IMG/VR virus record: IMGVR_UViG_3300005611_000007 | Span: 1-64,000 of that record | DNA length: 64,000 nucleotides | Origin: a virus | Lineage: Duplodnaviria > Caudoviricetes | Strand: one strand, 5' to 3' | Shown here: positions 28,683 through 31,217 of the stretch, in pieces | Position numbering within the stretch: position 1 is the first letter of the stretch | Layout: each line of letters starts with the position of its first letter | The notes under the pieces: model-generated | The model's database searches: none | Seen by the model: the letters and a program-made list of their open reading frames with translations, nothing else | What the model was told of the DNA's origin: nothing | Translations under genes and position numbers: made by a program

Positions 28683-29029
28683 TTCGAAATAATTCCTCCA
28701 GTATTCTTTCTTACAATATCTTCTGAGATTGCTTCAGCGTAATAGATTTCTAGTACCTCAGCATCTTCTACACATTCAAACCAATGATATTCACCCGGCT
28801 TCACTGTAGTGAAATTTCCTGGTCTTAGTTCTGTCTTATCTGTATGATCATAATCATTCTTACGTACAAAAATATTCATTTTACCGCTAATACAATAGAA
28901 TCCGTTCCACTTGTGTTTATGTAAATGTTCTGAACATTTATAACCAGACTTTGTAATGATTCTGTGAACTTCAATCATGGGAGTCACTAAAAGAGATTCT
29001 GTCTGACCCCAAACTTTACCATAAATCAT
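28679..29029 (-). CDS. Cupin-domain protein
   Basis: K.WG, CSEHLHKHKWNGF and VKPGEYHWF cupin motifs. Confidence 0.75.
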   Translation of the reverse strand: MIYGKVWGQTESLLVTPMIEVHRIITKSGYKCSEHLHKHKWNGFYCISGKMNIFVRKNDYDHTDKTELRPGNFTTVKPGEYHWFECVEDAEVLEIYYAEAISEDIVRKNTGGIISK

Positions 29030-29820
29030 TTTTTAACCACTCCATCAATTTCTAAAATTTTTTCTATTATTTCTGGAAAATCTTTTAATTTAATCATATT
29101 AGGACCATCACTCGGTGCATTATCAGGATCTGGATGGACTTCCATAAAGAGTCCTGCTATTGATACAGCGGTAGCTGCATAAGCAATAACAGAAGCAAAA
29201 CGTCTATCACCCCCACTTGAACCTCCCTGACCTCCTGGATATTGTACGGCATGTGTGCAATCCATAATGACAGGTGCATATTCTTTCATCACTTCTAATG
29301 AACGCATATCAACAACGAGATTGTTATATCCAAATGTTGTACCTCGTTCAGTTAACATTACTTCATTATAACCAAAGGATTTTATCTTGTCAACTATATT
29401 TTTCGTTTCCCATGGAGATAAAAATTGTCCTTTTTTTACATTCACAGGTTTACCAGTTTCGGCAGCTGATTTTAGAAGATCGGTTTGCCTACAGAGAAAT
29501 GCTGGTATTTGAAGAATATCAGCATTAGTTACGGCACATTGCCAAGATTCATGTACATCTGTTAATGTAGGTATACCTCTATTTCTTATTGAATCAAATG
29601 CATAATACGCACCATCAAAGTCTCCTCTGTATGAAGAGGATGATGTTCTATTTGCTTTATCAAAACTCATTTTAAAACAAAAGTTGACAGATAAATCGTC
29701 ACAAATCTCTTTTAGAGTCTCTGCGATTTCCACTGCCAACTCTTGATTTTCAAAAACGCACGGTCCAGCAATAATCGATAGTTTCTTATCGTTAGCGAGA
29801 CTATTATAAAAATTATTCAT
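29026..29820 (-). CDS. kdsA: KDO 8-phosphate synthase
   Basis: IAGPC, SFDKANRTS, QIPAFLCRQTDLL, NVKKGQFLSP, ERGTTFGYNNLVVD and EVHPDPDNAPSDG motifs. Confidence 0.95.
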   Translation of the reverse strand: MNNFYNSLANDKKLSIIAGPCVFENQELAVEIAETLKEICDDLSVNFCFKMSFDKANRTSSSSYRGDFDGAYYAFDSIRNRGIPTLTDVHESWQCAVTNADILQIPAFLCRQTDLLKSAAETGKPVNVKKGQFLSPWETKNIVDKIKSFGYNEVMLTERGTTFGYNNLVVDMRSLEVMKEYAPVIMDCTHAVQYPGGQGGSSGGDRRFASVIAYAATAVSIAGLFMEVHPDPDNAPSDGPNMIKLKDFPEIIEKILEIDGVVKK

Positions 29821-30331
29821 AAAAAATATGCTTTCCTATTCTAATTAATACCTTTTTATTTTTGCTCCATTTAGGTACGACATAATCCGCATGATAAAAT
29901 CTAGAACCTCTTGTGAAGTCTTCTACATTAAAGTGTAGTAATGTATCTGCTATATTAATAGCTTTATACCAAGTTTGTAAATCTTTTGGTGTATCTGATT
30001 TACCGTCACAATACCAAGAAAATTGACACTTATATTTTACTATTTTGTTGTTTATCTTTATTGCCTGATATACAACGTCGCAGATGTTATTAGGGAAATC
30101 TTTGTCTTTTACACGATTTAGAGTTACGAGACCAATAGCATATTGACCAATGATTTCTTCTCCTCTAGCTTCAAAGTATATGTTTTTAGCTAAACAGTTC
30201 AGACTATCTTTATCTACTTCGTGACTGTCAGCATTACCCGGCAATGTTGCCATAGATACAACAATAAGAATTAAGTAGACAAAACAAAAAATGATAAACT
30301 TTGCGATTCCCTCTTCGGAGAATTTAAACAA
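29813..30331 (-). CDS. SleB-family cell wall hydrolase with N-terminal TM/signal segment
   Basis: CLAKNIYFEARGE, VTLNRV...FPNNICDVVYQ, CQFSWYCDG and IGKHIFY motifs. Confidence 0.9.
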   Translation of the reverse strand: MFKFSEEGIAKFIIFCFVYLILIVVSMATLPGNADSHEVDKDSLNCLAKNIYFEARGEEIIGQYAIGLVTLNRVKDKDFPNNICDVVYQAIKINNKIVKYKCQFSWYCDGKSDTPKDLQTWYKAINIADTLLHFNVEDFTRGSRFYHADYVVPKWSKNKKVLIRIGKHIFYE

Positions 30332-30360
30332 TGTTATATCCTTTGATTGTTATAAGTGAT

Positions 30361-30690
30361 TGGGCCCGTTATATGACAGGGTGGAACCCATACCCCGTGA
30401 CTACAAGTCGATTAAGCCGCTAGGCGGATATCCTCGAAGTGATTGTCATTTGCAACATTAAAGTTAGCATTTATAGTTTTGGTCCGATACGCTGGTACCA
30501 TGGCGTCTACCTCGATTTGATCTTTACTACGTCAGTCGAACCTAATATCACCCCCCGCATAAGCATACCACAACAAACTCTTTCGTGTCTAGCAAGGTCT
30601 CATTACTAGAGACGGTGATATGCTTATGGTGGAGGTGACGGGTACTGCCCCCGTGTCCTGAACGTTTATTCTATCTCCTCTCAGACGGTA
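30361..30690 (-). ncRNA. ssrA: Two-piece (circularly permuted) tmRNA, alphaproteobacterial type
   Basis: On the minus strand the acceptor piece ends GACACGGGGGCAGTACCCGTCACCTCCACCA (3' end at 30627). A self-pairing intervening segment (TAAGCATATCAC...GTGGTATGCTTA) follows, then the coding piece starts GGGGGTGA (~30555). Tag frame (ANFNV)ANDNHFEDIRLAA* at 30412-30468; TATAAATA upstream at 30698-30705. Outer ends approximate. Confidence 0.92.
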
Positions 30691-30830
30691 GATTTAATAT
30701 TTATATTATTCATCTCTAGACTCTTGACATAATCAAATTCATCTGCAAGCCGGTCCAGATATTCTTCGTATTCCTCACGAATCTTAGGATATCGAAACGC
30801 TTCTTCATACAACTCAATAAGTTCAAACAT
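30681..30830 (-). CDS. Small hypothetical early protein (49 aa)
   Basis: MFELIELYEEAFRYPKIREEYEEYLDRLADEFDYVKSLE..., directly behind the promoter at 30861-30889. Confidence 0.55.
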   Translation of the reverse strand: MFELIELYEEAFRYPKIREEYEEYLDRLADEFDYVKSLEMNNINIKSTV

Positions 30831-30889: not shown

Positions 30890-31039
30890 CAAAAAAGTTG
30901 AAGAATTTGCCTCATCAACTAGAACATCCTTTCTATAAAAAAATGATGGCCACGATTTTTCCCCTCTTTCAGTACTCCATCTGCCATCCCTGCCGTACCT
31001 CACATAAATGAGCCTCAGCAGCACGGTGTTATTTATATT

Positions 31040-31135
31040 TGGTACGCCCACCAGGATTCGAACCTGGACCGCTCCCTAATCTGGGGACCATATGCCGGAT
31101 ATAAGCCGGGTGTTCTACCGTTAAACTATGGGCGC
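31040..31135 (-). tRNA. Atypical tRNA, anticodon UAU (Ile), with long variable arm
   Basis: GCGCCCA/TGGGCGT acceptor stem plus ACCA; D-arm; CCGG-CTTATAT-CCGG anticodon arm; ~26-nt variable region; CCAGG-TTCGAAT-CCTGG T-arm. Confidence 0.75.
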
Positions 31136-31140
31136 ATATT

Positions 31141-31217
31141 TGGCGATCTCGGCAGGACTCGAACCTGCAACCTAGAGCTTAGAAGGCTCTTGCTCTATCC
31201 AATTGAGCTACGAGACC
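31141..31217 (-). tRNA. tRNA-Arg(UCU)
   Basis: GGTCTCG...AGAGC-CTTCTAA-GCTCT...GGTTCGAGTCC...GCCA; canonical cloverleaf. Confidence 0.95.

Follow-up and report, generated by a model that had tools for sequence, protein, structure and literature searches.

The tRNA gene and its surroundings

The window, a 64,000-nt stretch of an IMG/VR virus record (IMGVR_UViG_3300005611_000007), carries on its minus strand a gene for a tRNA with the anticodon UAU, which is called by ARAGORN as tRNA-Ile(tat) and matches the Rfam tRNA family over the full model (RF00005, model positions 1-71) with 57.4 bits against a gathering score of 29 (Table 1). ARAGORN, Rfam and a reading of the sequence agree with the initial annotation that the acceptor, D and T arms and the CCA end are intact. 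The variable region is 26 nt long, of which 23 nt are an insertion in the RF00005 alignment, and it contains, as that annotation also recorded, the hairpin TCCC-CAGATTA-GGGA, with a 4-bp stem and a 7-nt loop. The hairpin with the decoding anticodon is referred to here as arm 1 and the extra hairpin as arm 2, with primed numbers for the loop positions of the latter. The minimum free-energy structure of the window tRNA alone is a cloverleaf with an extra hairpin that is not better than those of shuffled sequences (z = -0.59); the case for the extra arm therefore rests on comparison.

A gene for tRNA-Arg(UCU) lies 5 nt upstream of the tRNA-Ile(UAU) gene on the same strand; the two are probably co-transcribed, and a promoter-like sequence (TTGACG-17-TATAAT) assigned to the pair is a consensus match only. 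Directly downstream of the pair is a permuted two-piece tmRNA of alpha-proteobacterial type (Rfam RF04321, 111 bits; RF01849, 101 bits), which is uncalled by ARAGORN and has a promoter-like site of its own; its type may hint at an alphaproteobacterial host. The interval between the tRNA-Ile and tmRNA genes is covered by RNA-library contigs of one study. A gene of the DAHP_synth_1 family (KdsA-like, 1.2e-57) and a cell-wall hydrolase gene sit between gp32/gp59 and the tmRNA/tRNA genes.

Table 1. Features of the tRNA-Ile(UAU) locus in the window, and long suppressor tRNAs with matching arms at other loci.
Feature	Position	Strand	Remarks
Whole tRNA-Ile(UAU) gene	31040..31135	-	96 nt, UAU, CCA encoded; ARAGORN, Rfam
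Acceptor GCGCCCA/UGGGCGU, G1:U72, then UA		-	sequence read of window tRNA
D arm GUUU-AACGGUA-GAAC, then A26		-	4-bp stem, 7-nt loop
Arm 1 (decoding anticodon arm) CCCGG-CUUAUAU-CCGGC	31094..31110	-	one nt (A26) after D stem
Anticodon UAU of arm 1	31101-31103	-	canonical Y32-U33-UAU-A37-Y38 loop
C27:C43 mismatch	base of arm-1 stem	-	27:43 mostly non-Watson-Crick in family
Linker AUAUGG between hairpins	31088..31093	-	sequence read of window tRNA
Arm 2 (extra "pseudo-anticodon" arm) UCCC-CAGAUUA-GGGA	31073..31087	-	covarying stem, conserved loop
GAU in arm-2 loop	31079-31081	-	G invariant in 91 aligned rows
GCGGU, 5 nt, like an ordinary variable loop (positions 44-48)	31068..31072	-	length, Y48 behaviour
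T arm CCAGG-UUCGAAU-CCUGG, A73, encoded CCA		-	sequence read of window tRNA
tRNA-Arg(UCU)	31141..31217	-	ARAGORN; Rfam 70.9 bits
Promoter-like site, tRNA-Arg/tRNA-Ile pair	31507-31479	-	TTGACG-17-TATAAT
Interval between tRNA-Ile and tmRNA	30937-31037	-	RNA-library contigs, one study
Promoter-like site, tmRNA	30889-30861	-	
Permuted tmRNA	30359-30741	-	RF04321, RF01849
Cell-wall hydrolase gene	29813-30331	-	
DAHP_synth_1-family gene	29026-29820	-	KdsA-like
Long UCA tRNAs, 93-100 nt	L720:~12407, L646, L656, L650, L658, L623, L667, L634		ARAGORN label SeC
Long CUA tRNAs with YUGA	L596, L581, L547, L531, L601; additional L326:2338-2427		ARAGORN label Pyl

The whole record (126.9 kb, 36% G+C, estimated 70% complete) holds a T4-like myovirus gene set, including baseplate wedge proteins, gp32, gp59, ribonucleotide reductase and primase. 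Its closest cultured relatives, judged by a baseplate protein that is about 40% identical, are Methylophilales phage Melnitz and Pelagibacter phage HTVC008M, and the phage sequence is present in marine, estuary and freshwater metagenomes. Five tRNAs are encoded in the record, Ile(UAU), Arg(UCU), Pro(UGG), Thr(UGU) and Asn(GUU), and three of the four that accompany tRNA-Ile(UAU) are directed at A-ending codons (AGA, CCA and ACA). AUA itself is used at 16.9 per 1000 codons, a share of 25% among the Ile codons of 132 ORFs of this phage; given this usage and this tRNA set, an AUA decoder makes sense here.

A covarying tRNA family with two hairpins in tandem

A search for homologues, suggested in the initial annotation as a check on the arm, was carried out as pattern scans of IMG/VR and recovered 154 distinct tRNAs from 214 loci that combine a UAU anticodon with a GAU-bearing arm, with a covarying arm-2 stem and an invariant GAU. 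Direct blastn of the window region against phage records returned generic tRNA matches except in the Lactobacillus phages LpeD and Lpa804. These two and the Synechococcus phages S-SRM01 and S-SKS1 are cultured carriers in which the gene is unannotated; in the Lactobacillus phages 3-521 and ENFP1 it is annotated as tRNA-Ile.

In a MAFFT alignment of 91 diverse members, 98.9% of the cells in the arm-2 stem are paired and double-sided changes occur in all four of its pairs, so that its covariation matches that of the acceptor (7 bp) and T (5 bp) stems; the arm-1 stem covaries across the family as well. Over all stems, 94.8% of the cells are paired and 24 of the 25 pairs show compensatory change, and covariation of the whole structure reaches 0.76, as against 0.20 for shuffled alignments (0 of 500 attain the observed value) and 0.11-0.16 for slid controls. 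Arm 2 is predicted unaided by RNAalifold from the family alignment. The C:C mismatch in the anticodon stem pointed out in the initial annotation is present (C27:C43) and proves to be a family trait: of 86 rows that allow the comparison, 68 have either G:U or a mismatch at position 27:43.

The linker between the hairpins measures 3-6 nt in 58 of 60 parsed members, mostly with A as its first base and G as its last, and the segment after arm 2 is 5 nt long in 53 of the 60. Within this segment Y48 tracks D-loop base 15 (A15 with U, G15 with C) in the sequences inspected by eye; this is the behaviour expected of the Levitt pair, so the 5 nt behave as an ordinary variable loop. Arm 1 is placed as an anticodon arm relative to the D arm, and arm 2 is so placed relative to the variable loop and T arm, so that the two are anticodon-type hairpins in tandem. 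The window tRNA has A73 as its discriminator, as do 59 of the 60 parsed members.

Among related strains represented in RNA-library contigs, no position varies inside the tRNA gene, whereas the flanks do vary. A pseudogene, which the initial annotation expected to show random decay among its homologues, is excluded by the pairing, the compensatory changes and this absence of variants. The gene encodes a genuine and conserved variant of tRNA that is unannotated. In two studies it is spanned by RNA-library contigs that pass through the arm with neither joint nor gap; such contigs are blind to ends, levels and rare forms, may derive from DNA carry-over, and are proof of neither expression nor arm retention.

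Ordinary tRNA-Ile(UAU) genes with a short variable loop are common in phages (at least 92 distinct), which shows that the extra arm is not universally required. When arm 2 was removed and the anticodon masked, CAU tRNAs made up 11 of the 29 top labelled matches to the remaining body, compared with 9% of the database, a suggestive but weak sign that the body may be of tRNA-Ile2/Met-type origin. Extra variable arms with GAAA-type or other loops that are not anticodon-like occur in phage tRNAs for Trp(CCA), Thr(UGU) and Gly(UCC) (loci L009:307-394, L048:6470-6554, L112:5801-5889, L306:4584-4668 and L010:5623-5707).

A second subfamily with UAU and a GAU arm was found in cyanophage-like contigs (L124:12097-12184, L106, L201, L207 and others) and, unannotated, in GenBank entries of Synechococcus phages S-SRM01 and S-SKS1 (MW015081:32953-33033 and HQ633071:178505-178588); its D arm is reduced (GACU-UGGU-AGUC), its arm-1 stem is longer, its hairpins are joined by 2 nt (UU), and its tail is CUUUGA. 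The tRNA with UAU and a GAU arm also occurs in dense arrays (10-27 tRNAs per 8 kb), mostly in assemblies of Pyrinomonadaceae, Blastocatellia and other Acidobacteriota (L451, L465, L474, L452, L419 and about 30 other loci), some of them on contigs of 0.5-3.4 Mb. A bacterial lineage that uses this tRNA instead of TilS was considered and rejected, a TilS-domain match being present in four of the five such genomes tested; the tRNA is therefore accessory there.

The GAU loop and matching triplets in suppressor tRNAs

The conservation of the arm-2 loop was assessed with scans that differed in what was held fixed. With arm 1 and the T loop fixed and nothing fixed in arm 2 (scan A), the arm-2 loops recovered were CAGAUUA, UAGAUUA, UAGAUGA, UAGAUGG, UAGAUAA, UAGAUUG, UAGAUUUUU and CUGAUAA, the last of which, present in one member, is the exact loop of tRNA-Ile(GAU). 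With only CUUAUA, the spacing and the T loop fixed (scan B), 111 of 112 distinct long tRNAs had an arm-2 loop of the form Y-[A, rarely U/C]-G-A-U-N-N, in which 33' is A in about 107 of the 111, while 37' (mostly U or G) and 38' vary. The sole exception, a long UAU tRNA with an unusual D arm (L337:7871-7962), has the loop UGGACGA, with GAC for GAU. In the reverse scan, which fixed only CAGAUUA and the T loop, 73 of 75 distinct tRNAs carried a UAU anticodon, on many different covarying arm-1 stems, and the arm-1 loop of the family reads Y-U-UAU-A-N. GAU in arm 2 is the most conserved feature of the family and is tied to the UAU anticodon. The initial annotation had allowed that the triplet may be there by chance, which these counts contradict; its remark that the loop lacks U33 and a purine at 37 holds for the window tRNA (A33' and U37' in CAGAUUA). 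Inspection by eye of the UAU loop, T loop, D loop and linker found no conserved complement to the GAU loop.

If the arm supplies identity, other phage decoders whose anticodon breaks identity should carry a matching triplet, and tRNAs with the anticodons UCA and CUA do. For the opal anticodon UCA, all 8 distinct long tRNAs among the matches listed have UCCAAA, as in the anticodon loop of tRNA-Trp, in the loop of the extra arm, and one of them (L720) has an arm 2 that is canonical throughout as an anticodon arm (ACGGU-CUCCAAA-GCCGU). Trp identity follows the rules G73 and A1:U72. Among the matches listed, G73 is present in 8 of 8 long UCA tRNAs and A1:U72, as in E. coli tRNA-Trp, in 5 of 8; L623 and L667 have G1:U72, and the 1:72 pair of L656 is ambiguous. 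For the amber anticodon CUA, 5 of 6 distinct long tRNAs among the matches listed have CUGA or UUGA, the Gln anticodon followed by A37, in the loop of the extra arm (for example CACGG-CUCUGAC-CCGUG in L596), the exception (L545) having the arm loop UAAC. Three of them (L531, L596 and L581) combine the Gln-like pairs U1:A72, G2:C71 and G3:C70 with G73, and the fold of L547, L531 and L326 is ambiguous. Both suppressor samples are small, are drawn from the matches listed and include related sequences, with roughly four independent Gln lineages. It is difficult to account for the agreement between arm triplet and acceptor-end identity, seen for three amino acids, without invoking recognition by a synthetase.

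Proposed charging through the second hairpin, its rivals and known systems

The reading preferred here, to which we give a probability of about 0.65, is that the window tRNA is a functional phage decoder of AUA, which would read its codon through the UAU of arm 1, take its Ile identity from the GAU of the second hairpin and be charged by the host IleRS. GAU is the anticodon of the major tRNA-Ile and the one to which IleRS normally responds. Arm 2 would present G34-A35-U36 to the anticodon-binding site of IleRS, the enzyme would charge the tRNA with Ile despite its UAU decoding anticodon, and the phage would gain a decoder of AUA that is independent of lysidine modification by TilS. Bacterial IleRS recognises anticodon bases 34-36 and copes badly with U34. 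The anticodon and A73 form the centre of the Ile identity set (PMC9976931), specific IleRS residues read G34, A35 and U36 as judged by mutagenesis (bioRxiv 10.64898/2026.02.03.703510), and with UAU in place of LAU the kcat/Km of E. coli IleRS falls about 360-fold (PMC3575796); a UAU decoder is thus an inefficient substrate for the IleRS of ordinary hosts, and the element it lacks is GAU. The TilS-independent AUA decoder proposed in the initial annotation fits U33 and A37 in arm 1, the conserved A73, the 25% share of AUA and the tRNA set for A-ending codons, and the interpretation in that annotation as a whole is supported in part.

When the 2798 ORFs within 4 kb of the tRNA were clustered, no phage protein was common to more than 24 of the 214 loci, with RNaseH-like proteins and HNH endonucleases forming the largest clusters; this suggests that the partner belongs to the host. 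The hosts of arm carriers are Cyanobacteria and Firmicutes, for the cultured phages, and probably Proteobacteria, for this phage; with two phyla and a probable third, the partner should be a universal host factor. That IleRS binds arm 2, and the manner in which it does so, we infer. In the favoured model, arm 2 would occupy the anticodon-arm slot during charging and arm 1 would occupy it on the ribosome, with the weak 27:43 pair of arm 1 and a G-purine juxtaposition at the base of arm 2 as putative hinges; alternatively, the flexible C-terminal domain of IleRS may reach arm 2. The swap is favoured because IleRS, TrpRS and GlnRS differ in architecture. Class I synthetases bind tRNA with the variable region facing away from the enzyme, so the geometry needs rearrangement, a point against charging through arm 2; archaeal LeuRS reads the tips of variable arms via a flexible C-terminal domain.

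Several observations weigh against charging through arm 2. Its loop is an imperfect copy of that of tRNA-Ile, with A at 33' where the latter has U, and with U or G at 37' in most members, its stem consists of four Watson-Crick pairs only, and its 32':38' combinations (C-A, U-A, U-G, C-G and U-U) allow the loop to be read as one of 5 nt, a pentaloop. Since 37' is mostly a non-purine, arm 2 cannot carry t6A37, a determinant for bacterial-type IleRS (PMC9976931), and Lactobacillus hosts, to judge from titles cited in the same source, own a tRNA-Ile(UAU) and an IleRS that recognises UAU. Under the preferred reading, A33' and the non-purine 37' would prevent arm 2 from acting as a second decoding anticodon.

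It is unlikely that the arm serves, instead of charging, as a handle, decoy or shield for a factor that binds a GAU-type loop, such as a tRNA-Ile anticodon nuclease, the ileS T-box leader in Firmicutes or an enzyme of tRNA modification. In favour of this, phages are known to use tRNAs against defences that target tRNA, and the loop is conserved in sequence, with A33' kept beyond the identity needs of IleRS. Any RNA could bear a decoy, yet the GAU arm sits on UAU tRNAs in all but two of 75 cases; the triplet in Trp- and Gln-type arms matches the identity implied by the discriminator and first pairs, which is what a synthetase would read; and the host range demands a universal partner, which T-boxes are not. 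The anticodon-nuclease decoy put forward in the initial annotation is weakened accordingly, as it leaves the match between arm triplet and acceptor identity in the Ile, Trp and Gln types unexplained.

An element of structure or processing (for folding, stability or an RNase site), with GAU conserved for a reason other than identity, is a rather improbable account. AGAUU fits the RNase E motif RN↓WUU, the 32':38' combinations permit a pentaloop, and other phage tRNAs, for example Trp(CCA) with a GAAA loop and Thr(UGU), bear arms that are not anticodon-like. This account explains neither the exclusive link to UAU nor the CCA and YUG arms that match UCA and CUA tRNAs. An RNase site in particular is at odds with Lactobacillus, which to our knowledge is without RNase E and whose phages carry the arm, and, more weakly, with the uninterrupted arm in the RNA-library contigs.

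A switch in the style of class II tRNAs, by which LeuRS or SerRS would charge the tRNA and AUA would be read as Leu or Ser, in the manner of nev-tRNA-Ile(UAU) and allo-tRNAs, is very unlikely. The variable arm is long, and A73 is also the Leu discriminator in bacteria. A nematode class II tRNA with UAU takes Leu in vitro (PMC3333845; PMC4300185). SerRS and LeuRS, however, are generally held to ignore the sequence of the variable loop, as titles cited in PMC7609411 also indicate, so that this switch leaves the invariant GAU unexplained. The 4-6 unpaired nt before the arm and 5 after it are unlike the arms of Ser, Leu and Tyr tRNAs, the discriminator is A73 where bacterial tRNA-Ser has G73, the D arm consists of a 4-bp stem with a 7-nt loop, and the acceptor/T-stem frame is 7/5 and not 8/4 or 9/3. 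Charging with an amino acid other than Ile through a class II arm, as entertained in the initial annotation, has lost ground to the same two observations, the unexplained GAU and the absence of class II geometry. Least probable of all is a two-headed decoder in which either hairpin could take the ribosomal anticodon position, AUA being read via UAU and AUU/AUC via GAU, for although each hairpin resembles an anticodon arm in its placement (arm 1 following the D arm, arm 2 preceding a normal 5-nt variable loop) and arm 2 of the Trp-type suppressors is a fully canonical one, arm 2 of the Ile family is without U33 and usually without a purine at 37, both near-universal requirements for decoding, the other tRNAs of this phage target rare A-ending codons and not common ones, and a CCA arm would add nothing to decoding because UCA already wobble-reads UGG.

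The window tRNA seems to exemplify a phage design of wider scope. On balance, and narrowly, we favour the view that phages and some Acidobacteriota arrays share a general, undescribed architecture of two anticodon arms in tandem, in which arm 1 would decode codons for which the host has a poor reader or none (AUA, UGA and UAG) and arm 2 would display the anticodon that the host synthetase needs (GAU, CCA or YUG), uncoupling amino-acid identity from codon reading with no change in host enzymes. With most amino acids it is the anticodon itself that the synthetase recognises, and a tRNA with an altered anticodon loses its amino acid. An identity anticodon on a spare arm would bypass this classic obstacle to changing the meaning of a codon; it would explain phage AUA decoders that lack lysidine, as well as the Trp and Gln stop-codon suppressors of phages whose hosts have standard synthetases. 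If this is true, the architecture would be a natural route to codon reassignment and to TilS-independent decoding, and a ready design for genetic-code engineering that offers synthetic biology evolution-tested scaffolds for orthogonal or reassigned tRNAs. Inventories of phage tRNAs and predictions of recoding may be affected by the lack of annotation in GenBank and by the SeC and Pyl labels given by ARAGORN.

By RF00005 and ARAGORN the molecule is a tRNA, and it has the marks of an AUA-decoding tRNA-Ile, namely UAU in a 7-nt CUUAUAU loop with U33 and A37, and A73. It shares with class II tRNAs (Leu/Ser/Tyr/Sec) a stem-loop variable arm longer than about 10 nt. Class II arms are preceded by about two unpaired bases and followed by one to three, and their loop sequence is not conserved, whereas here the anticodon is UAU, 6 nt precede the arm and 5 follow it, and the loop holds an invariant GAU; a class II Leu, Ser or Tyr tRNA is thus excluded by anticodon, discriminator, arm geometry and conserved loop. 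With GAU on the arm and UAU decoding, the tRNA has the defining trait of pseudo-anticodon display on a variable arm, so far a class of engineered molecules only; other phage tRNAs share this trait, with CCA displayed where UCA decodes and YUG where CUA decodes. No description of a natural tRNA of this kind was found in the full-text literature, which leaves subscription journals largely outside, and a prior description is possible.

No report known to us describes a conserved anticodon-like loop for the variable arm of nematode nev-tRNA-Ile(UAU). That tRNA resembles the phage family in its long variable arm and UAU anticodon but is eukaryotic and nuclear, with a class II arm that makes it a substrate of LeuRS (PMC3333845; PMC4300185). 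Allo-tRNAs are likewise known from metagenomes, including Acidobacteria, and have a long variable arm, with UAU among their commonest anticodons; they are defined, however, by an 8/4 or 9/3 acceptor/T-stem and are SerRS substrates (PMC7609411), whereas the phage family has a 7/5 frame, A73 and a sequence-conserved arm loop, and an allo-tRNA is excluded for the window tRNA by its 7-bp acceptor and 5-bp T stem. The tRNA-Ile(UAU) of bacteria without tilS, such as Mycoplasma mobile, also reads AUA with a lysidine-free UAU and has A73 but keeps an ordinary short variable loop; there the solution lies on the protein side, Arg865 of IleRS accepting U34 and the ribosome separating AUA from AUG (PMC3575796), whereas the solution proposed for the phage tRNA lies on the tRNA itself. 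Hairpins that recruit a synthetase through its anticodon-binding site by means of a cognate anticodon are found in the thrS operator and the TYMV TLS (PMC9976931), although these belong to mRNAs or viral genomes, where they serve regulation or 3'-end aminoacylation, and not to a decoding tRNA. The closest design is an engineered one, an amber suppressor in which a hairpin on the variable arm mimics the cognate anticodon arm (GUG, for His); such pseudo-anticodons raised the aminoacylation of amber suppressors in E. coli, and a change of GUG to GAG abolished His insertion in one chassis (Mukai 2020; PMC7590224). Those tRNAs are synthetic, were built on a 9/3 allo-tRNA chassis and depended for part of their effect on a HisRS with an extra anticodon-binding domain, whereas the present tRNAs occur naturally and widely among phages, with a 7/5 frame, and would rely on the synthetases of the host as they are.
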